A DNA stretch of 64,000 nt from Myxococcota bacterium (GTDB lineage Bacteria > Myxococcota_A > UBA9160 > UBA6930). Of this stretch, positions 4,133 to 54,391 are shown one piece after another. The stretch is from NCBI GenBank assembly GCA_965223415.1, contig OZ245002.1:4768001-4832000 (forward strand). The letters run 5' to 3'. How positions within the stretch are numbered: position 1 is the first letter of the stretch; every line of letters starts with the position of its first letter. The notes under the pieces were generated by a model. The model saw only the letters and a list, made by a program, of their open reading frames with translations. It was not told the origin of the DNA and searched no databases. The position numbers and the translations under genes were made by a program.

Positions 4133-6829
4133 CTAGCGAGTGGAGGGGAAGCTGGGGGGTACGCAGCTCGCCTCGCTGGAGACGGATGGGACTCCGGAAA
4201 GCGTCGACGCCGAAGAGAGGTTTGCGAAGGCTCTCAAACGGAAGCACTTGAGAAAGGAGTTGCGCACGTTAACGTCGGCGCGGTCCATCTTTGATTCTCC
4301 GCTGCGAAAGGACCTGACACTTCGTAGTGTCGGTACCGCTGCGCAATCAGCGACAACCACTTGATCCGTGTTGCCAGGATCCTCTTCCGCCAGTGCATTG
4401 GCAACATCGACAGGAACGCCGGGCGGCAGTGTTGGCGTCCTTGCCTGGTAGCGCATCTCCAGGCCTTCGATTGTGGTACAGGCTGTGCGTCTTCCTTCGA
4501 CAAGCACACTGCCCACACCCGACTGCACATCTCTGCCACCGACCACCGTTAGGCAGCTCGCAGAGTTCTGGACGATTCCGTATGTCGCGTTTTCCTCAAG
4601 CCATGGAGAGATCACCGTTACTCCACCATAGGCCCCGTCTTGATAGGCGTGCGTAAAGCACATACCGGCACCAGAGCTCCTTTCCGCAACAGGGTTGTTG
4701 AGATGAATGCTGCTCCCTCTTCTATAGAAGTGGAATCCATGTCCGCTGTTGTTTGATGAAATCACGTTGTCGAGCAAGAGGTTGTTCGCCTCGCCAACCA
4801 GGACACCGGAGCCCACGCAGTTGAACGTGGCCACATTGGTCAGCCTTGCGCTTGTAGATCCACCAACGTCGCCGGCGTCGTTCCTGCCGCCGTGAATCCA
4901 GACGCACCCAGGAACCCCGAAGTTCACCGGGGCGATAGGTAGGTTGAACGAACTCGGCAGTACTGCGAGCGGCTCCGCGGGGCAGTAGGCACCGGCGATC
5001 CCACCCCGGTTCCCATAGAACCCGATGTCACTGACCAAGGCTGTAACTGAATCTCGGAGCTCAGCGACCGCGAGCTCGCAATCGTAGAGTGAGTGATAGA
5101 TCGTCGAACCGCTAACGTCTGGTGGCGTGTTGTTGACCAGCGCCGTGGCTCCCAAGCCGGTACCAACCCACTTGACTCCGCCTCCGACCGTCAATCCGCA
5201 CACTCGATACCTCTTGGGAAGGCCTACAACCTGACCACTCTTTCCTGACTCCTGCAATGCGCGTTGAACTGCCCAAGAGTCGTCTTCGCATTCGTCAAGC
5301 CGTCTCGCGTAACCCGCGCAGTCTTGGTCCGCCTCATCGCTGCAAGCAGCGTCGTTGTCCGTTCGGCACTGAGCCAGCGCGGCCGGGTCCGATTCGAGGT
5401 GTTCGCACGTTCTCTTTAGGCACGCGTCCTTGAAACCCGTGCGATTCTGAAGGCCGCACGGTTCCGAACACTCAGTTTGAAGGATGGTGCAGGCGGCCCC
5501 ACACGCCGTATTGGTCGGATCGTTTTGGTCTTGCTCGCAAGGCCGAGCACAGCTTCGGACCCTGGGGGCTCCTTTCTCATCCAGCCTGGGTGCGCCGTTC
5601 TCGTCCAGAATCACCCCGTCGGGAAACTCAAGATGCTCGCCTGGCAACGGGGATTGACTGGCGCGTCCACCGATCGCTCCCCACCACTCGGCGTAGATTC
5701 GGTCGACGACCTGGTCCTCGCGCAGCCCGACGAAACAGCCAGAGTTGGGCTTCTCCGGAGGAAGTTCGCCGGGGGTGAACTGGCGTTCCTCTTCACAGAA
5801 GTGGCGCGGACCCGCGATCACTTCGCCTCGTAACTCGACCCGCACGCCGTTCTCGACGTGCAAGAGGGCGCCGCTCTCCGGGCGAAACGCGGAATGGATG
5901 AAGAGCGTCAACGTGTTGTCTGCTCCGCAAGAGCAATTGTACAGTTCGCTGCCGCACGCCGCGGCCGCTGCTGGACACTGGTTGTCAATGATGTAGTTGC
6001 CCGGCGGAACAACGAGCGTCCCTCGCTGTCGCTTCAAGAGAACCTGGCTAGCCCGCGCAAATGCGAGAGTGTCGGAGCCTTGGCTGAAGTCGGCGATTTG
6101 GTGAAGGCCGCACGCCGCGCCTGTCAACTGAGCGTCTTCACCGTTGGCGTGACAGTTGGCTACGTACAAGTCGCCGGCGCCAGTTGGAAGCACACATTGC
6201 GCGTTGAACAAGAACTGGAGACGTACCTCGGCTGGGTCGCCTGTGCCTCCGGCCTCGGCCCGCATCTCCCATTCGAGTGCGTAGTCACCCGGAGGGAGAG
6301 GCGCGCTCACCGATGTCCGAACGTCGAAGTGCTCCTGCAATCCGCGTTGGGTGTGCTGATGGGAAAGGACCAGCTGCGGTGGGCCAGTGCTGGCTAGCCG
6401 GTAGAGAGCTACGACGGCACGAAACTGCGGATCAACGGTCCCAAGTACGCGGGTCGTTCCCTCGATTGACACGTGGGTCGGCTCATCGAAGGACACTTCA
6501 AACGTGTTCGCCTTGTTGTCGGCGCTAGCCAAGTCTCCCGCGAGCTTGATGCTGCCGTCGAAGGAGACCGTAGGGAGAGCAGGGGCACTGCCAATAGAGA
6601 GCGTCGCAGTGGTGGCAACGAAGCGTGATGCCCGCGTGCTGCAGTCGTGGCGCTCATCAATAGAGAAGTCGCCAACGTGGCTCGTGGTGAGGTCGCAGTC
6701 GGCGGATGCCGGTACTGGCCGAAGTGCGAAGCTGGTCTCCGTATCACCCGGAAACGTCACTTCGGCGAAGGCACCCGCGGGGAGTGCGAGGAGCATGACG
6801 ACCGCAGCCAGGAACATCGCCGACCTCAC
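4133..6829 (-). CDS. secreted Cys-rich protein with pectate-lyase-like right-handed beta-helix
   Basis: Signal peptide (..PAGAFA); WWGA...DDSWAVQRAL motif; C-terminal N-x-G-x-G beta-helix turns; lower GC than core. Confidence 0.7.
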   Translation of the reverse strand: MRSAMFLAAVVMLLALPAGAFAEVTFPGDTETSFALRPVPASADCDLTTSHVGDFSIDERHDCSTRASRFVATTATLSIGSAPALPTVSFDGSIKLAGDLASADNKANTFEVSFDEPTHVSIEGTTRVLGTVDPQFRAVVALYRLASTGPPQLVLSHQHTQRGLQEHFDVRTSVSAPLPPGDYALEWEMRAEAGGTGDPAEVRLQFLFNAQCVLPTGAGDLYVANCHANGEDAQLTGAACGLHQIADFSQGSDTLAFARASQVLLKRQRGTLVVPPGNYIIDNQCPAAAAACGSELYNCSCGADNTLTLFIHSAFRPESGALLHVENGVRVELRGEVIAGPRHFCEEERQFTPGELPPEKPNSGCFVGLREDQVVDRIYAEWWGAIGGRASQSPLPGEHLEFPDGVILDENGAPRLDEKGAPRVRSCARPCEQDQNDPTNTACGAACTILQTECSEPCGLQNRTGFKDACLKRTCEHLESDPAALAQCRTDNDAACSDEADQDCAGYARRLDECEDDSWAVQRALQESGKSGQVVGLPKRYRVCGLTVGGGVKWVGTGLGATALVNNTPPDVSGSTIYHSLYDCELAVAELRDSVTALVSDIGFYGNRGGIAGAYCPAEPLAVLPSSFNLPIAPVNFGVPGCVWIHGGRNDAGDVGGSTSARLTNVATFNCVGSGVLVGEANNLLLDNVISSNNSGHGFHFYRRGSSIHLNNPVAERSSGAGMCFTHAYQDGAYGGVTVISPWLEENATYGIVQNSASCLTVVGGRDVQSGVGSVLVEGRRTACTTIEGLEMRYQARTPTLPPGVPVDVANALAEEDPGNTDQVVVADCAAVPTLRSVRSFRSGESKMDRADVNVRNSFLKCFRLRAFANLSSASTLSGVPSVSSEASCVPPSFPSTR

Positions 6830-9854: not shown

Positions 9855-10312
9855 GGGGAACGTGCCGCGCAGCGGCTCAACAGGAGGTGCGCAAATCTAC
9901 GTGTCCTCTTAGCCCTCGAATATCACGTCCTGCGACAAGGCTCTCGACGAGCAGATCGAGCGCGCAGTCGACCTCGCGGTCCGAAGTGGCGGCGTCGAGG
10001 CCGTGGGGCGCAAGCTGAGGAAGCTGGAGGCGGAGCGAGAGAGGCTCGCCGTCCAGCAGGCACAGGCGCCGCCGGCGCTCGACCTTGGCGCACTCCGAAG
10101 CCGCGCGCTGGAACTCGCGGCCGACCTTCGGGCCACGTTCGCGCTGGCACCCGACGAGACGCGCAGTGCGCTGCGGATGCTCGTCGGAGATGACCGAATC
10201 CGCGTGTCCCCCGACCCTGATCGCGGTTTCCGCGTCGAAGGGGTCGTGGGGCTTCCCTGGGGACCCCCGAGGCCACTGGCCGGGGCCGAAGCCCCGGCGC
10301 AGTGGCGTCAGG

Positions 10313-10386
10313 TAGCGGGGACAGGATTCGAACCTGCGACCTGCGGGTTATGAGCCCGCCGAGCTACCAGACTGCTCCACCCCGCA
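10313..10386 (-). tRNA. initiator tRNA-Met (CAT)
   Basis: TGCGGGGTGGAGCAGTCTGGTAGCTCGGCGGGCTCATAACCCGCAGGTCGCAGGTTCGAATCCTGTCCCCGCTA; GGG/CCC anticodon stem and unpaired 1:72; followed by CCT, not CCA. Confidence 0.97.
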
Positions 10387-47111: not shown

Positions 47112-47384
47112 TCATCTCGGGGCCATAATCGCCGCCCGGACGGCATCCTGGGCCGACTCGACCGGCGGCTCGTGCAGTACCGCCGTCACCTCCCCGTCCA
47201 CCTCCCAGGCGTAGCACCTGGGCGCCGTCGGGTGGCCCAGCAGCTCGAACACGAGCACCTCGCCCTCCCAGACGGTCTCGCCTTGGAAGGTCTCCACGAC
47301 GGGCTCCCGGCGCTCAAGGCGGCTCTTGGCGCCGTGGGTGGCCCGAATAGCCTGCTCGATCTGCGGGATCGGCAGCTCGTTCAT
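47112..47384 (-). CDS. hypothetical 90-aa passenger protein
   Basis: MNELPIPQ..ETFQGETVWEGEV..GHP..RCYAW; starts 2 bp after upstream stop, ends beside IR. Confidence 0.75.
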   Translation of the reverse strand: MNELPIPQIEQAIRATHGAKSRLERREPVVETFQGETVWEGEVLVFELLGHPTAPRCYAWEVDGEVTAVLHEPPVESAQDAVRAAIMAPR

Positions 47385-47386
47385 TC

Positions 47387-48193
47387 CTATTCGGGCCGGG
47401 GCGAGCGCTCTGCGATTGCAGCACGCACATCGATGCCGCCCTCGCCCTCGTACATGAGGTCGAAGATGTTGGCGGCCGTCTGGAGCCACTTGGCGCGTTC
47501 GGGAATCGGCCACTCGCTATCCGGCTCGGGCAGGGATCCGAGCAGACCCTGGATGAACGGATGCAAGCCGTCGGAACCATCGCCTCCGCCATGGTTCGGG
47601 TTCTCGTCAACCTCGTTCACCGGGGGATCATTCTGCGGGGTCGTCACTCCGGGGCGCACCAGCCGATTGCGTCCGTGCTCGAAGAACCCGGCCCGCTCCG
47701 CGGAGCGCTCCAGAACCTGGCGAGCCCGGCTCTTCTGCTTGTCCGCAACGCCCAGGCCTTGCATGTCGCGTTCGAGGGCAGCCGCCGGCGGAACGACGCC
47801 CCCGCTGTACTTGTCGTACACCTCGCGGTAGAGGGGCACCGAGAGGAACGCATCGACGAGCGCCGCTCGCGCCTGACTCGGGTCCATGGCTCGGCGCCCG
47901 AGGTCAGAGAGGCGGTGCATCCCGGACCCACTGCCACCCTCGATGAGGCGGAAGTGGCGCGCCGACGCGACCTGGGTGCGATACGCGCTGCTCTTCGGGC
48001 TCTGGTTCGTCCAGGGCGCGAGCTGGTCGTCGGAGCACTCTCCGCTCCCGACGTTCGAGTGGATCGCCTCGGCCATCTGAATCGCCGAGGCCAGATCGCT
48101 GTAGGGGAACGCGATCGTGGACCGCTGGCGCCCCCCGCCGTCTTCCTTCGCCGTCGCCGCATCCGCGACCGACGGGATCGAGTCTCCGCTCAT
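47387..48193 (-). CDS. hypothetical passenger protein, possible winged helix
   Basis: GGGAGG RBS; FPY..SARHFRLI..LSDLGR pattern; C-terminal LHPFIQGLL..W..W domain. Confidence 0.75.
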   Translation of the reverse strand: MSGDSIPSVADAATAKEDGGGRQRSTIAFPYSDLASAIQMAEAIHSNVGSGECSDDQLAPWTNQSPKSSAYRTQVASARHFRLIEGGSGSGMHRLSDLGRRAMDPSQARAALVDAFLSVPLYREVYDKYSGGVVPPAAALERDMQGLGVADKQKSRARQVLERSAERAGFFEHGRNRLVRPGVTTPQNDPPVNEVDENPNHGGGDGSDGLHPFIQGLLGSLPEPDSEWPIPERAKWLQTAANIFDLMYEGEGGIDVRAAIAERSPRPE

Positions 48194-48282
48194 GCGAACC
48201 TCCCTTGCCGCAAGAGTGAATCGCGGCGTCCACGAATCTAGCAGACAAAGCGTGCTTGTCTCGCAGTCCGCAGTCGAAATGG

Positions 48283-48311
48283 TTGACAATCGCGGATTGC
48301 GACGCTCTACT
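48283..48311 (+). promoter_or_regulatory. sigma70-like promoter upstream of non-coding region
   Basis: TTGACA-17 bp-TCTACT. Confidence 0.55.
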
Positions 48312-48480
48312 TGTCTGACGCCCGTCCAGCATGCGGAGGAAAGCGGTGAGGAGGGTCTAGAGCGCCGGTGGCTGGAGTGGTCCACCCCGAACGGCGCGAA
48401 CACAAGTAACACCGCCCGGTATCCCGTCCTAGCTGGCCAGCCTTCGGGGATACCGGGCGGGAGGACCTGCCCGCCCCAGT

Positions 48481-48551
48481 GGGGCACGCAGGTTTGCCGG
48501 CAGAGGTCTTTACAGCCGTCTCCGTCGGGTTCGACTCCCGAGTGCTCCACC
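48481..48551 (+). ncRNA. tRNA-like cloverleaf, non-canonical
   Basis: Acceptor GGGGCAC/GTGCTCC + ACC; T arm TCGGG-TTCGACT-CCCGA; short D arm; bulged 6-bp stem with loop CTTTACA. Confidence 0.7.
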
Positions 48552-48568
48552 CGGGGCCTGGGCTCAGC

Positions 48569-48760
48569 TTAGCCAAGGTCCGCCCGTTCCAGCAGTACGG
48601 CCCTCGCCCAAGGTGAGAAGGCCATATCGGCCTTCTTGGCCGCCTTCTGGAGCTTCGCCCGGTCCGAAGCCCGCAGACGGATCGTGACTACTACGTCTTG
48701 GTCCTGCCCCTTCGGGAGCTTCGGTCTGCCCCTCGGGCGCTTCCTCGTTCTCGCCGCCAT
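48569..48760 (-). CDS. small ribbon-helix-helix-like DNA-binding protein
   Basis: RGRPK then VTIRL..LQKAA..SPWAR; divergent from transposase. Confidence 0.7.
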   Translation of the reverse strand: MAARTRKRPRGRPKLPKGQDQDVVVTIRLRASDRAKLQKAAKKADMAFSPWARAVLLERADLG

Positions 48761-48808
48761 GCGATTTCTTGTACCACATCAAATGAATATCTGCACTACG
48801 AAAAATCC

Positions 48809-48837
48809 TTGATTGCCCTTGATATTTGTAGTACATT
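48809..48837 (+). promoter_or_regulatory. transposase promoter, probably leaderless transcript
   Basis: TTGATT-17 bp-TACATT, ATG 6 nt downstream, no SD. Confidence 0.6.
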
Positions 48838-51168
48838 AAATCCATGGCGCGGCTCACCACGGACAAGAAGGCCACCATCCTCGGCGCCTTGGTCGAGGGC
48901 TCCTCGATCCGCTCGACCGAGCGCATGACCGGCGTCCACCGCGACACCATCTGCAAGCTCGTGGTGGAGACGGGCCGGAAGGCTGAACGGATCATGGCCG
49001 ACGAGATCCGCCACGTGCAGCCCCAGAGCCTCCAGCTGGACGAGATCTGGTGTTTCGTGGGGAAGAAGAAGGCCAACCTCAAGAAGACCGATGACCCGCG
49101 CACCACGGGCGACGCCTGGTGCTGGGTGGCCCTCGATCCCGATTCCAAGCTCGTCCCCCACCACCTGGTCGCGAAGCGCGAGGCTCGCGACGCCGTGCGG
49201 TTCACCCGCGAGCTGGCCCAGCGCGTCGAAGGCCGCATCCAGATCAACACTGACAAGCTCGGGGCCTACCGGCAGGCTGTCTTCGCGGCATGGGGCAGGG
49301 ACGTGGACTACGGCCGGATCGTAAAGCGGTTCTCAGGGGAGCCTCTGGACTCCGGTAGGTACTCGCCGCCGAAGGTGGTCGCGGTGGACCGGAGATCGTC
49401 TACGGAAACCCCGATCCAACCACGATCTGCACCTCCCATGTCGAGCGGAACAACCTCACGATGCGGATGGGGATGCGACGCTTTACGCGGCTGACCAACG
49501 GGTTTTCCAAGAAGGTCGAGAACCTCCGGGCCGCGGTGGCGCTTCACTTCTGCCACTACAACTTCATCCGCCGGCACGCCACCATCAAGACGACCCCGGC
49601 CCTGGCGGCAGGGGTCACGGACCACCGCTGGACCCTGGCCTCGGTGGACACCCAAAACCGGCCATAGAAGGACGTCTGAAAAGCGGCCATAGGGGCTGAC
49701 GCCCAGGACGTTGACGACGGCGAGGGACCTGCGATCCCCCGCCGCCATGGCGAACCTTCTGGGCAACGAGAAACGCGAGCAGATTCTGGCACTTGGCCGC
49801 CTCGGCTGGTCGCTTCGGCGGATCGAGGAGGCGACGGGCGTGCGCCGGGAGACGGCGAGCCGTTACCTCCGGGCCGCGGGGATCGCGGTGCGATCTCCTG
49901 GTCGCTGGGGGCACGGGGCCCCAAACCCGGCCATAGAGGCGTCCACCGACTCGAAGGCCCCGGCAAAAGCGGCCAAAGAGGCGTCCACCGATCCGGCCTG
50001 GCCGCCGATGCCGGGCCGGAGCCCCCAGGCCAGCGCCTGCGAGCCCTACCGCGAGTGGATCGAGGCGGGCGTGCGCCAGGGCCGGACGGCGATGGCGATC
50101 TGGCAGGACCTAGTCGATGACCACGGCTTCGCCTTCAGCTATGCGAGTGTGAAGCGCTTCGTGGCGAAGCAGCGAGCCGCGGCGCCGCGCGAGGCGCACC
50201 CGGTGATCGAGACGGCACCGGGAGAAGAGGGCCAGGTCGACTACGGCGACGGGCCGATGGTGCGGCATCCCGGGTCGGGGAAGTACCGGCGCACGAGGCT
50301 GTTCGTCTTCACCCTGGGCTACAGCCGCAAGTGCGTTCGGCTGCTCGTGTGGAAGTCGAGCAGCCAGGTCTGGTCGGAGCTGCACGAGAAGGCCTTCCGC
50401 CGGCTGGGCGGTGCACCGCGCACCGTCGTCCTCGACAACCTCAAGGAGGGCGTTCTCAAGCCCGACGTCTACGACCCCGCGCTCAACCCCCTCTACCGCG
50501 ATGTGCTCGCCCACTACGGCGTGACGGCGCTTCCGTGCCGGGTGCGCCACCCCGATCGCAAGGGGAAGGTCGAGTCCGGGGTGCGCCACGCGCAGCAGAA
50601 GGTCCGCGGGATGCGCTTCGAGTCGCTCGAGCAGGCCCAGGCCTACCTCGACCGCTGGGAGCGCCGATGGGCCGACACCCGCATCCACGGCACGACCAAG
50701 CGCCAGGTGGCGGCGATGTACGAAGAGGAGAAGCCGCACCTGCTCGGGCTTCCCATCGAGCCCTTCCGCTACTACCAGCACGGCGAGCGCACGGTGCACC
50801 TCGACGGGGCCATCGAGGTGGAGGGGGCCTACTACCACGCGCCGCCGGGCTGGCTGGGGCGGCGGGTGGCCGTCCAATGGGACGGGCTGCGGGTGCGGAT
50901 GCTCGATCTGCAGACGGGGGAGCTGCTGCGCGAGCACGTCCGCCAGAGGCGGGGGCGCCGCAGGATGCGGGAGGAGGACCGCCCGAAGCGGACGCCGGCC
51001 ACGACCCTCCAGCTGCTCGCGCGGGCCCGGCGCGCCGGCGTCCACGTGGGCGAGGTGTGTGAGGCGATCCATCGCCTGGACGGCGTGTCGCAGGACGTGA
51101 TATTCGAGGGCTAAGAGGACACGTAGATTTGCGCACCTCCTGTTGAGCCGCTGCGCGGCACGTTCCCC

Positions 51169-52455
51169 GTGAGGGAGGGGGGCGTGGGGCAGCGGCGACT
51201 GAGGCAGGAGGAAGTGATGACGATCGAAGTGCTGCACGAGCGGGGGTGCTCGAACCGGGAGATCGCCCGCCAGCTGGGGATCCGGGAGAGCGCGGTGCGC
51301 TACCGGCTGAAGCGGCTGGCGGAGGGGGCGCGAGACGGCCGGAGCGGGAAGCCCTTCCTGGCCGAGGCGGTCCACGAGGTGATCGCGGAGTGGCTGGAGG
51401 CGAGCTCGGGAGGCCGTGGCGTGAACCTGCAGGAGCTTCACGAGTTCCTGGTGGAGGAGCACGGGTACACGGGGAGCTCCAAGAGCGTGCAGCGGTACGT
51501 GCGGGCCCGGTTCCCGAGACCGAAGGTGCGGAGCCGGCGTCGGGTGGAGACACCGCCCGGGGCGCAGGGTCAGGTGGACTGGGGCGAGTTTCCGGGCGTG
51601 CGGATCGGGGGCCAGGAGGTGGACCTGCATGCCTTCCACCTGGTGCTCTCGCACTCGCGGCGAGAAGCGGTGGTGTGGTCGGAGCGGGCGGACACGCTGG
51701 CGTGGCTGGACGTGCACAACCGGGCCTTCGAGCGGCTGGGCGGGGTGCCGGCGGTGCTGCGGGTCGACAACGTGAAGACAGCGGTGGCGAAGGGGGCGGG
51801 GCCATGGGGGACGGTGAACCCGGCTTACGCGAGCTATGCCGGGGCCCTTCGCTTCCACGTGGACGCCACCCGTCCCCGCCAGCCGCAGGAGAAGGGGAAG
51901 GTGGAGCGTCGGATCCTGGGGCACCGGCGGGGCTTCGATCCGCGTCGGCGGGAGCACGAGAGCCTGGAGTCGCTGCAAGCGTGGACGGACGGCCAGGTGG
52001 CGCGCTCGAGCCACCGGCGGCAGTGCCCGGCGACGGGCACGACGGTCTTCCAGGCGTGGGAGGCGGAGAAGCCCCATCTCGGGGCCCTGCCCGAGCGGCT
52101 TCCCGAGCCCTTCGACCTGGCCGTGATGCGACGTGTCGGGCGCGACGCCACGGTGCGCTTCGAGGGGCGTACCTACAGCGTCCCCTTCCGCTTCGTCGAG
52201 CAGAGCGTCGAGGTGCGCGGCTGCGCCCGGCAGGTGCAGGTCTGGGCCGAGGGCTCGGTGGTGGCCGCGCACCCGCGCCACACGCGAAGCCGCCTGCTGC
52301 TGGACCCGAGCCACTACGAGGGGCCGAGCACGGAGGGGGTGGAGGCGCCCGTACCGCTCGGGCGCATGGGTCGACGCCTCCAGGAGCTGTGGGCGATGGA
52401 GCCGGAGCAGCGGCCGATCGACCTCTATGCCGATCTGGCGGAGGTGGCGCGATGA
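51169..52455 (+). CDS. istA: IS21 transposase IstA
   Basis: Translation identical to 8568-9854. Confidence 0.95.
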   Translation: MREGGVGQRRLRQEEVMTIEVLHERGCSNREIARQLGIRESAVRYRLKRLAEGARDGRSGKPFLAEAVHEVIAEWLEASSGGRGVNLQELHEFLVEEHGYTGSSKSVQRYVRARFPRPKVRSRRRVETPPGAQGQVDWGEFPGVRIGGQEVDLHAFHLVLSHSRREAVVWSERADTLAWLDVHNRAFERLGGVPAVLRVDNVKTAVAKGAGPWGTVNPAYASYAGALRFHVDATRPRQPQEKGKVERRILGHRRGFDPRRREHESLESLQAWTDGQVARSSHRRQCPATGTTVFQAWEAEKPHLGALPERLPEPFDLAVMRRVGRDATVRFEGRTYSVPFRFVEQSVEVRGCARQVQVWAEGSVVAAHPRHTRSRLLLDPSHYEGPSTEGVEAPVPLGRMGRRLQELWAMEPEQRPIDLYADLAEVAR

Positions 52456-53252
52456 CGGCGGGAAACCCGGTGCCCAAGAAGGGCGGCAAGGTGGATCTCG
52501 ACCCGACCCGCGAGCGGCTCGTGCGCCTCGGCCTCCATCACGCGGCCGAGCACATCGGCGAGGAGCTGGCCCGAGCGACCAAGGACGACCTCGTGCCCCA
52601 CCGCTTCCTCGACCTGCTGCTCGAGGCCGAGCTGCAGCACCGCGAGGAGCGGAGGATGAAGACCTCGCTCCGTCTCTCGGGCCTTCCCACGGGGCAGACC
52701 CTCGGCAACTTCGACTTCGCCTTCCAGCCGAGTGTGGAGCGGAGCCGGATCGAGACGCTGGGCACCTGCGCGTGGATCCGGGCCAAGGAGAGTCTGCTGA
52801 TCCAGGGTCCGCCGGGAGTGGGCAAGACCCACCTGGCGGTGGCCCTGGGGGTGCGGGCCGTGGAGAACGGCTTCTCCGTGGCCTTCCATCGCCTCGAGGA
52901 CCTGCTGGCGGCCCTCAAGCGCGACGCCGAGATCAGCCCGCAACGGCTGCGGCGGCGCAAGCACATGAACGTGGCGCTCCTCGTCATCGACGAGGTCGGC
53001 TTCGAGCCCATGACGCGCCAGGAGGCGAGCCTCTTCTTCCGGCTCGTCTCCTACCGCTATGGGAGGGGCTCGATCCTGATCACCACGAACAAGGGCATCG
53101 CCGACTGGCCCGAGGTGCTGGCGGGCGACGAGGTGCTGGCCACCGCCATCCTCGATCGCCTCCTCCACCACAGCCAGGTGCTCAACATCTCGGGGCGGAG
53201 CTACCGGCTCCGCGAGCTCGAGCAGGCCGCGGGGCAAAGCGCCCAGCGTTGA
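52452..53252 (+). CDS. istB: IS21 helper ATPase IstB
   Basis: Translation identical to 7771-8571. Confidence 0.95.
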   Translation: MTAGNPVPKKGGKVDLDPTRERLVRLGLHHAAEHIGEELARATKDDLVPHRFLDLLLEAELQHREERRMKTSLRLSGLPTGQTLGNFDFAFQPSVERSRIETLGTCAWIRAKESLLIQGPPGVGKTHLAVALGVRAVENGFSVAFHRLEDLLAALKRDAEISPQRLRRRKHMNVALLVIDEVGFEPMTRQEASLFFRLVSYRYGRGSILITTNKGIADWPEVLAGDEVLATAILDRLLHHSQVLNISGRSYRLRELEQAAGQSAQR

Positions 53253-53629
53253 GGCCCCAGAGGGCGGCCTGACGGCCGTGCTCTCCTTCGGAGAGCGGAA
53301 GAGAAGAAGGAAGAACCGAACATCAACCCAGGGGGGTGCGCAAAACTAGCCGTCCTCTTAGCGCGCAAGAGATGACGTCCCTCGACACGGCGAGCCCGGG
53401 GTGCGTCGCATCCTGGGCGTGCTCTCCCTGTGCAAGCGCCACGGCATCCCTCGCGTCGACGATGCCTGCGCCACCGCCCTGGCCCTCGAGCTGCCCACCT
53501 ACGCGTTCGTCAAGCGCTACCTGGAGCGTCAGCCCGAGCTGCCGCTCTCGCTCAAGCAGGTGGACCCGCTCATCCGCCAGCTCACCCACTACCGCGATCT
53601 CATCGATCGCCGCACCGAGGAGACCTCTC

Positions 53630-54391
53630 GTGAATCTGACTGAACTCGATCCCGCACTGCGCAAGCTCCGGCTCTCGGGCATGGCCGAGCATCTGGAGAT
53701 GCGGCTCCTCGAAGCCCAGAAGGGCGAGTGGGCGGCCATCGACCTGCTCTCGGCGCTCGTCCAGGACGAGCTCGAGCGCCGGCAGGACCGACTGCTGGCC
53801 CGGCGCATCAAGCAGGCCCGCTTCCGCGACGCCAACCGGACCCTCAACGGCTTCGACTTCCGCTTCAATACGAAGATCGATCGCGCCCTGGTCTTCGAGC
53901 TCGCCACGGGCCGCTTCCTCGAGCAAGCCGAGGACGCTGTCTTCCTCGGCCCGCCGGGCACGGGCAAGAGCCATCTCGCCCAGGCGATCGGCCTCGCCGT
54001 CATCCACCAGGGCCATCGCGTCGCCTACCGCGAGGTCCACGTCCTCCTCGAGGAACTCGCTGATGCGACCCTCGACGGCACCCGCAAGGAGTACCTGGCC
54101 GAGATGGCGAGCGTGCCGCTGCTCATCCTTGACGACCTCGGCATGCGCAAGCTCCCCACCACGGCCGCCGAGGACCTGCTCGAGCTCATCATGCGCCGCT
54201 ACGAGCGCACCAGCACCCTCGTCACCTCGAACCGACCCGTCGACGACTGGGGCCGGCTCCTCGGCGACACGGCAGCCGTCACCGCCATGCTCGACCGCCT
54301 CCTCCACCACGGCCACCTGCTCAAGTGCGGACCCCGCAGCTGGCGCACCAAGAAGACCACGGCCTTGCCGAAGGAGGCTCCGGCGCGGTAG
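53630..54391 (+). CDS. istB: IS21 helper ATPase IstB (element A copy 2)
   Basis: Translation identical to 2249-3010. Confidence 0.95.
   Translation: MNLTELDPALRKLRLSGMAEHLEMRLLEAQKGEWAAIDLLSALVQDELERRQDRLLARRIKQARFRDANRTLNGFDFRFNTKIDRALVFELATGRFLEQAEDAVFLGPPGTGKSHLAQAIGLAVIHQGHRVAYREVHVLLEELADATLDGTRKEYLAEMASVPLLILDDLGMRKLPTTAAEDLLELIMRRYERTSTLVTSNRPVDDWGRLLGDTAAVTAMLDRLLHHGHLLKCGPRSWRTKKTTALPKEAPAR

Follow-up and report, generated by a model that had tools for sequence, protein, structure and literature searches.

tRNA mimics are known from plant viruses, from tmRNA, from Y-like RNAs and from a few processed transcripts. The tRNA-like structures of plant viruses include the valylatable 3′ end of tymoviruses, and the tRNA-like processing modules include the mascRNA of MALAT1 and RNase P-processed phage and operon RNAs. 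Leader RNAs of transposases and recombinases are exemplified by the bridge RNA of IS110 and by the leader structures of IS200. Within the literature listings and abstracts consulted, no description was found of a tRNA mimic tied to DDE insertion sequences, and Rfam 15 holds no model for the element described here. This element is a tRNA-like RNA domain carried on the + strand of a 64,000-nt stretch of DNA (the window) from a bacterium of the Myxococcota.

We compared the window element with each of these systems. Like the tRNA-like domain of tmRNA, it combines G3.U70 and A73 with a canonical T arm, a reduced D region and a long helix in the place of the anticodon stem, and a short ORF lies on the same RNA. 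However, tmRNA is a two-part molecule of about 350 nt with pseudoknots and a tag frame, whereas the cloverleaf of the window is contiguous in 69 nt, has neither pseudoknots nor a tag, and is preceded by a mini-ORF with its own SD and start codon. The window genome possesses an ordinary tmRNA elsewhere (369 nt, 4178743-4179111, called by ARAGORN). As in the plant-virus ends, a tRNA mimic is embedded in the longer RNA of a selfish element and marks read by synthetases are kept (the valine-type U-A-C, and A73), but the element is bacterial and DNA-encoded, it lies upstream of a gene, its acceptor stem is a true one and not a pseudoknot, and CCA is unencoded in the window type. With modules of the mascRNA kind it would share an embedded cloverleaf in which the top half matters and whose ends are made by RNase P and 3′ processing; here, however, processing is only proposed, and the conservation of G3.U70 and of the loop motif exceeds what RNase P needs. 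The IS110 and IS200 leaders resemble it as conserved structured RNAs between a promoter and a transposase ORF, but in our case the enzyme is of the DDE IS1 type, the RNA mimics a tRNA, and there are neither evident guide segments nor any implied RNA guidance. Finally, the window type recalls tRNA-Ala by its acceptor pairs 1-5 and A73, and a second, more frequently met type (the main type) recalls tRNA-Gln by U1-A72 and its D arm. Unlike ordinary tRNA-Ala and tRNA-Gln, these RNAs defeat the detectors and show an irregular anticodon arm, C37 (window) or C55 (main type), and no CCA (window type).

Structure and detection of the tRNA-like domain

The domain runs from G1 to the discriminator A73 (48481-48549, +), as established by sequence reading, by folding and by the covariance model R2 presented below. 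Its 7-bp acceptor stem (G1-C72, G2-C71, G3.U70, G4-C69, C5-G68, A6-U67, C7-G66) contains a single G.U, the T arm consists of a perfect 5-bp stem (UCGGG/CCCGA) with the loop UUCGACU, and A73 is followed by CCC instead of CCA (48550-48552, +). The anticodon arm is an interrupted 9-bp helix, the inner part of which (AGA/UCU plus GGU/GCC, one bulged G) carries a 7-nt loop at the anticodon position, CUUUACA, closed by U.G and with a C at position 37. On all these points reading and folding bear out a preliminary description made from the sequence alone, which had reported the acceptor stem with one G-U, the discriminator A followed by CC, the T arm, the bulged G, the loop C-U-UUA-C-A and C37. Two other features had to be redrawn in the light of the fold common to the relatives. 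The D arm, a 3-bp stem (G8-C17, C9-G16, A10-U15) with the loop GGUU, starts at G8, leaving no nucleotide between it and the acceptor stem where one had been drawn, and the CCG taken for a 3-nt variable loop pairs with C18-G19-G20, so that the window element has no variable loop. The likeness to tRNA-Pyl that had been pointed out stands as regards geometry; it fails at the anticodon, which is CUA in tRNA-Pyl, a triplet that the loop CUUUACA lacks. What the preliminary description had passed over is the presence of G3.U70 together with A73. With G1-C72 and G2-C71 these make up the alanine acceptor identity set, and acceptor pairs 1-5 and A73 are the same as in the window genome's own tRNA-Ala. 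We assign the element to the + strand because the invariant G.U would read C.A on the opposite one.

Compared with canonical elongator tRNAs, the element has the 7-bp acceptor stem, a T stem of 5 bp that includes G53-C61, and a T loop conforming to UUCRANY, and lacks the 4-bp D stem after U8/N9, the 5-bp anticodon stem, a purine at 37 and the variable loop. The CCA end is encoded in 12 of the 12 genuine tRNA and tmRNA genes listed for the window genome. Detection by ARAGORN, which had been suggested as a check, or by Rfam did not succeed: the only ARAGORN call in the window is a tRNA-Met, which is also the only match there at the Rfam gathering score. With E up to 10 there was no RF00005 row, and the tRNA-Sec model gave 19.7 bits (E 0.5) against a gathering score of 47. 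Folded alone, the element has an MFE of −28.9 kcal/mol (z −1.36), a stability that is matched by 17 of 200 shuffles.

A search by homology gave a different picture. Model R2 was built from 4 relatives, the window being excluded, and was calibrated briefly, so that its E-values are rough. It assigns the window element 37.1 bits (E 1e-6), the next match in the window reaching 14.7 bits, and the element is its sole match across the 5.8-Mb window genome, in which the window stretch is a single copy. R2 matches occur in 7 of 101 relatives' genomes, the window's own counted, and five other members score 60-92 bits. By contrast, the main-type model R1 gives the window element merely 15.2 bits (E 0.021), against 69-94 for its members and 37 for the window's ordinary tRNA-Met, which indicates that the window body differs from the main type; the two are related by place, leader and loop motif, and their bodies are unrelated. 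The window tRNA-like is a real, evolutionarily conserved element. Its structure is conserved in related elements, the point on which the preliminary description had let its reading stand or fall, and the claim of a non-canonical tRNA-like RNA carried with a transposon gains support from relatives that lie beside a homologous transposase.

Some other calls deserve mention. The tRNA-Met (CAT) lies at 10311-10386 on the − strand and is the sole canonical tRNA in the window. Elsewhere in the genome (contig C1, 5419351-5419420 and 5449809-5449878) ARAGORN reports two near-identical 70-nt "tRNA-Arg(tcg)" with a good T arm and a poor body, candidates for tRNA fragments or for a further tRNA-like element. 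Several more odd ARAGORN calls in this GC-rich genome are apparent false positives.

Conservation of the RNA and of its leader

Pair counts for the window type come from 9 members, few and mutually akin. Among them 62 of 63 acceptor cells are paired, and G1-C72, G2-C71, G3.U70 and A73 are unchanged in all nine, although the acceptor sequences are of about five different kinds. Acceptor pairs 4-7 and T pairs 49-51, by contrast, vary on both sides. Compensatory changes affect 9 of 22 pairs among 4 sequences of this type, and none of the nine members encodes CCA. In the window copy itself, the 7 acceptor pairs and the 5 T pairs are all intact. A second constant is the triplet U-A-C in the loop at the anticodon position, found in 8/9 window-type and 17/17 main-type members (A73: 9/9 and 14/17), although its position relative to the stem varies from member to member. 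UUA behaves differently. Of 10 elements near the window type, 3 have it in the middle of a loop of 7 nt, namely the window, L107 and the Ser-like L004/L096, whose CUUUACA loops are identical. It is missing or out of register in L034, L101, L102, L103, L104, L106 and L026, and wholly missing from L101, L106, L034 and L026; the loops of L034, L101 and L102, among the nearest relatives, are 8-9 nt long (CCGUUACAA, CCGUACAA and CCUAGACAA).

The RNA of L107, the copy of genome G150 from another bacterial family, is identical to that of the window at 66 of 69 positions, the three differences being a D-loop base, the bulged base and a change of C69 to U that keeps the pairing. Beyond the RNA, identity between these two loci is 68% over a 1.1-kb region, 58% for the transposase protein and 53% for the ribbon-helix-helix (RHH) protein encoded nearby. 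Likewise, L097 and L100 share 85.5% of the tRNA-like and 68% of the gene, and a 190-nt metagenome contig matches 48481-48552 exactly and shows no match beside it. Judged by these identities, the RNA is far better conserved than the neighbouring genes. Kin of the window type lie directly upstream of homologous transposases in one genome of the same genus (G004) and in three of the same family (G023, G012 and G009), and the tRNA-like family as a whole is present in at least two phylum-level groups. Selection preserves the stack of acceptor and T arm, a small D loop with GG, the canonical T loop, A73 and U-A-C in an irregular hairpin and, in the window type, also G1-C72, G2-C71 and G3.U70. The geometry of the anticodon arm lies outside selection, which acts on the top half, the alanine set and the loop motif.

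The main type was found through c0, a gene divergent from the leader. Among the 69 loci fetched via c0, odd ARAGORN tRNAs lie about 300 nt upstream of this gene on the opposite strand, and R1 was built from 12 of them. R1 matches 18 of the 69 loci at 69-94 bits; L016 equals L017 in sequence, leaving 17 distinct. In these 17, 99.1% of cells are paired and 13 of 19 pairs vary on both sides, in an alignment fitted to the model (12 of 19 in a MAFFT-based count). None of 500 shuffles was as high, and slid controls gave 38-62%. The body is tRNA-Gln-like, with U1-A72 and a D arm UCGUCUAACGGUAGGAC common with a real tRNA-Gln (L026, 3832-3905). Its anticodon arm is irregular, U55 is replaced by C55 in 14 of 17 T loops, CCA is encoded in 13 of 17, the loop is mostly CUUACA, G3.U70 is absent and acceptor pairs 2-3 are variable. 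A third group (L004/L096 and L046) consists of Ser-like bodies that have G73 and an extra arm of great length, and the first of the two copies in G012 joins such a long-armed body to the CUUUACA loop of the window. L034, for its part, combines a main-family leader with a tRNA-like bearing the window's D arm. On this comparison, three different tRNA bodies occupy the same place with one loop motif in common. The main-type module is single-copy in the 5 genomes tested. In four loci (L027, L030, L032 and L037), of which two are Bradyrhizobium, it adjoins recA, and this hints at a stable position in the chromosome more than at frequent hopping. L093, a contig of a viral collection, carries two main-type tRNA-likes 3.9 kb apart (2602-2678 and 6504-6579).

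The order of the main-type module is divergent c0, promoter, SD and mini-ORF, hairpins P1 and P2, tRNA-like, a conserved structured spacer and the IS1-type transposase. A corresponding leader can be traced in the window. Its putative promoter (TTGACA, 17 nt, TCTACT; 48283-48311, +) has a −35 hexamer aligned with the TTGAC(R) of the relatives; the promoters named in the window were placed solely by such alignment, and a strict sigma-70 consensus scan of 48100-48900 listed none. Next come GGAGG and the mini-ORF GTG AGG AGG GTC TAG (48335-48360, +; the mini-ORF at 48346-48360). Of 20 loci parsed, 15 have an SD-like site with a start codon 115-135 nt ahead of the tRNA-like 5′ end, and none was found in the other 5; the predicted peptide ranges from 4 to 117 codons. 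Hairpin P1 (GCGCCG...CGGCGC; 48362-48397, +) aligns with the main-family P1, whose stem is GCCCCNG/CNGGGGC, and 48361-48418 shows a 75% DNA match to G192. Hairpin P2 (48412-48460, +), a perfect 14-bp stem, stands 20 nt upstream of the tRNA-like, and a hairpin of other sequence takes its place in the relatives inspected by eye. As a side observation, TATCCA boxes are repeated around both promoters upstream of c0 in L014-L047, where their number reaches four in L028, and such boxes occur in L090 and L092 too. The window and L037 have (C)TTGTCT/AGACAAG repeats there rather than TATCCA. Repeats of the TATCCA type are likely to be operator sites, perhaps for c0.

Transposon context and possible roles of the RNA

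The transposase gene of the window, of the IS1 family (48844-49667, +), is frameshifted near 49390 and has its C-terminus replaced from about 49638; intact homologues have 273-284 aa and end in ...WTLEELVxxPY. The frameshift is no assembly slip, since an independently assembled (Logan) contig repeats 47300-49668 with 0 differences, frameshift included. The window protein scores 54.5 bits with NF033558, below the cut-off of 100, and main-family transposases exceed the Pfam DDE_Tnp_IS1 cut-off of 24.1 with 42.7 and 40.4 bits. The gene is abutted and truncated by an IS21 (istA and istB, with the domains rve, Mu-transpos_C_2 and IstB_IS21; 49711-53252, +) that lies outside the tRNA-like module. 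A second istB-like ORF follows the IS21 at 53336-54391. By its sequence the window transposon is dead, and because of this its tRNA-like copy may be idle.

As in the relatives, the window element follows hairpin P2, on the same strand as the homologous transposase and upstream of it. Two layouts occur. In layout (a) the transposase ATG follows the tRNA-like at a distance of 13-44 nt (G004, G023, G009 and the second G012 copy). In layout (b), found in the window, G150, G192 and the first G012 copy, the RHH gene stands between the two on the opposite strand and the transposase has a promoter-like site of its own; in the window the candidate site is TTGATT, 17 nt, TACATT, 6 nt before the ATG (48809-48837, +), and the same arrangement exists in L107 (TTGACA...TACATTAAATCCATG) and L096. 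The tRNA-like persists beside a decayed transposase in L031, L032 and L036, and in L034 no transposase was found within the locus. Since the tRNA-like outlasts the transposase and the transposase of layout (b) has its own promoter, a role beyond the processing of the transposase mRNA is indicated. No terminal inverted repeats of the IS1-type module were found; in IS1595-type relatives, inverted repeats surround the whole module. The transposase 3′ end CCGTACTAG briefly matches the loop CCGTACAAG, in direct rather than inverted orientation, and this was treated as chance. In distant relatives c0 lies inside IS1595-family transposons with 26-28-nt inverted repeats (L040, 793-820 and 3822-3849; L043, 848-873 and 4184-4209), and a simple scan of these two elements gave no tRNA-like.

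The reading that we prefer, with a probability of roughly 0.42, is that 48481-48549 (+) forms the conserved, tRNA-shaped 3′-terminal domain of the structured leader RNA of an IS1-type DDE transposon family, a mimic that would be processed by tRNA enzymes. The host tRNA machinery would take this domain for a pre-tRNA. RNase P would cut before G1, where it would meet U at −1, G at +1, a 12-bp stack and A73-C-C, and the 3′ side would be trimmed after A73. The leader RNA would thereby gain defined ends and be uncoupled from what lies downstream, namely the transposase ORF in layout (a) or, in layout (b) and hence in the window, the RHH gene in antisense. The released RNA of about 70 nt, once CCA had been added, would serve as a substrate for alanyl-tRNA synthetase. 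The structure, its conservation and strand and its place in the element are observed, whereas transcription, processing and any charging are inferred; a search for sequencing runs containing the stretch listed no RNA run. As for the enzymes, the window genome has two genes of the CCA-adding/poly(A) polymerase family; its best RNase Z match, at 79.5 bits, falls short of the curated cut-off of 293. The best reading is still that of a tRNA mimic acted on by the enzymes of tRNA processing, which the preliminary description had put forward as a processing signal, and possibly alanylated. Nevertheless, RNase P requires neither G3.U70 nor a conserved U-A-C, and because processing fails to explain these two features charging stays a live rival. 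If marking RNA ends is all that the element does, it would be a fresh instance of a known trick. The invariance of the alanine identity set amounts to a concrete and testable biochemical claim, and the recurrence in at least two phylum-level groups of three bodies with a common loop motif, better conserved than the transposase, suggests a function unaccounted for by insertion-sequence biology.

One may accordingly ask whether the RNA acts in trans as an aminoacylated mimic, processed, provided with CCA and charged for a role other than ordinary decoding, which we regard as a serious but unlikely explanation. AlaRS charges helices with G3.U70, and the amino acid would be alanine, through G3.U70 and A73, in the window type and perhaps valine, through U-A-C and A73, in the main type. 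Such an RNA might inform the element about the state of charging or translation, or interact with EF-Tu or ribosomes in the manner of tmRNA and of the plant-virus ends. What speaks for charging is that the alanine set is invariant in nine of nine members while acceptor pairs 4-7 turn over, that A73 and the five outermost acceptor pairs are shared with the genome's tRNA-Ala, that U-A-C and A73 are kept in both types as counted above, that the Ser-like long-arm bodies have G73, that the RNA is much more conserved than the adjoining genes, and that the genome has a gene of the CCA-adding family. It is weakened by the lack of an encoded CCA throughout the window type, by the main type, which is without G3.U70 and variable at acceptor pairs 2-3, and by the shifts of U-A-C relative to the stem. 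A more specific form of this idea, somewhat less probable again, is a chargeable mimic cut from the leader of DDE transposons, alanylated via G3.U70 and A73 (with valine or serine marks in its sisters) and acting in trans. A charged mimic of this kind might couple transposase or RHH expression to the charging state, or act in a tmRNA- or suppressor-like manner via the U-A-C/UUA loop.

Just as doubtful is the view that the family is functional and the window copy an inactive leftover of its dead transposon. The frameshift near 49390, present in the independent contig too, and the IS21 cut near 49638 fit this view, as do the single copy in the genome and an R2 score of 37.1 bits where five other members reach 60-92. 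However, the lower score is common to L106 and L107, so that it reflects a sub-branch and not decay. Moreover, the acceptor and T pairs are complete, the few changes that separate the window RNA from L107 spare the pairing, and the ORFs of c0, RHH and small90, a further gene of the element, are intact in the window.

Much less probable is a function at the DNA level, in which the tRNA-like would be a boundary of the mobile unit or a site of recombination or attachment, much as integrating elements use the 3′ parts of tRNA genes. Homology between copies begins at the 5′ end of the tRNA-like (48479 against L107; likewise L097 against L098 and L100), the IS1-type elements yielded no terminal inverted repeats, and genuine tRNA genes lie near the modules of L019, L023, L026 and L051. 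Against a DNA site, compensatory changes preserve the RNA fold and the G.U pairs suit one strand only. The element is no copy of any tRNA of the genome, the best local match being the T arm only; small90 and the leader lie beyond the tRNA-like and travel along with it, and the IS1595-type inverted repeats enclose the whole module. An att site or duplicate of a host tRNA was rejected, since the genome tRNAs match the T arm at most and an exact 28-nt search of the genome contigs was empty.

The least probable reading, an ochre suppressor with the anticodon UUA that would insert alanine at UAA, is unlikely because position 37 is a C and CCA is unencoded. In its favour, Ala and Ser tRNA identities are independent of the anticodon, and the 7-nt CUUUACA loop recurs in L107 and the Ser-like L004/L096. 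In addition, TAA is the stop codon of the RHH gene in 3 of 4 loci, and the window frame is open from that TAA into c0. These points are outweighed by the 3-bp D arm, the interrupted 9-bp anticodon helix and the absent variable loop, by the longer loops of L034, L101 and L102 and the loss of UUA from L101, L106, L034 and L026, and by the associated ORFs themselves, as c0, RHH and the transposase contain no in-frame UAA. The stop-codon suppressor offered in the preliminary description is not supported, UUA being centred in three of ten elements only. Any decoding role is equally hard to reconcile with the irregular anticodon arms and with C55 in the main-type T loops, and a decoding tRNA in the window is very unlikely on sequence grounds.

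Neighbouring genes

The RHH gene (48569-48760, −) encodes 63 aa, and its stop codon is 17 nt from the 3′ tail of the tRNA-like on the other strand. Its matches are weak (NikA-like, E 3e-4; DUF6290, E 5e-4), its GC by codon position is coding-like (0.66/0.52/0.78), and L096, L106 and L107 have homologues in the corresponding position. On the − strand of the window, the RHH ORF, its TAA, a 375-nt spacer and c0 form one frame with no other stop. A fusion of RHH and c0 by read-through of this TAA was ruled out: GC in the spacer is flat by codon position (0.63/0.62/0.70), which marks it as noncoding and the open frame as chance in GC-rich DNA, and c0 starts at a Met conserved in 27 of 27 homologues.

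c0 itself (47387-48193, −) encodes a 268-aa protein with tandem winged-helix domains and a conserved C-terminal helix pair. It has 693 homologues, none with a name, the closest of which (P0002-P0012) are 59-68% identical, and none in the plasmid and phage collections; a metagenome scan queried with a single protein gave 2 loci, neither of use here. Its structure model (pLDDT 80.4) matches a MarR-type WH (Z 9.7), the FokI recognition domain (Z 8.4 over 152 residues) and BrxA (Z 7.9). c0 is cargo, being missing from the elements of G004 and G192. The gene small90 (47112-47384, −), for a 90-aa protein, lies at the far side of the element; it accompanies the tRNA-like and transposase in L101-L104, L106 and L096, and the intervening cargo varies. 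Its alpha/beta model has a pLDDT of 92.6, with a best fold match of merely Z 5.5. U-A-C-A resembles MazF sites, which had suggested a MazF-like nuclease for small90; the lack of a clear fold match leaves this unsupported. Besides transposases, the neighbours comprise the tandem winged-helix protein c0, the RHH protein and the alpha/beta protein small90. No RNase was found among them, and a decoy or antitoxin for an RNase of the element, as had also been proposed, is not supported.

Three further observations concern c0 and small90. Right after the c0 stop, a hairpin GAGGCCGCCAACTGAGGCGGCC occurs in L015, L016, L021, L023, L027, L032, L037 and L041. It is far better conserved than its flanks and is missing in the window, where small90 directly follows c0. 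At L063 (3064-3453), a c0 remnant directly precedes a small90 homologue. Finally, the C-terminal motif of c0, KWLQTAANIFDLIY, is present in many otherwise unlike proteins, mostly of Acidobacteriaceae (L053-L082).
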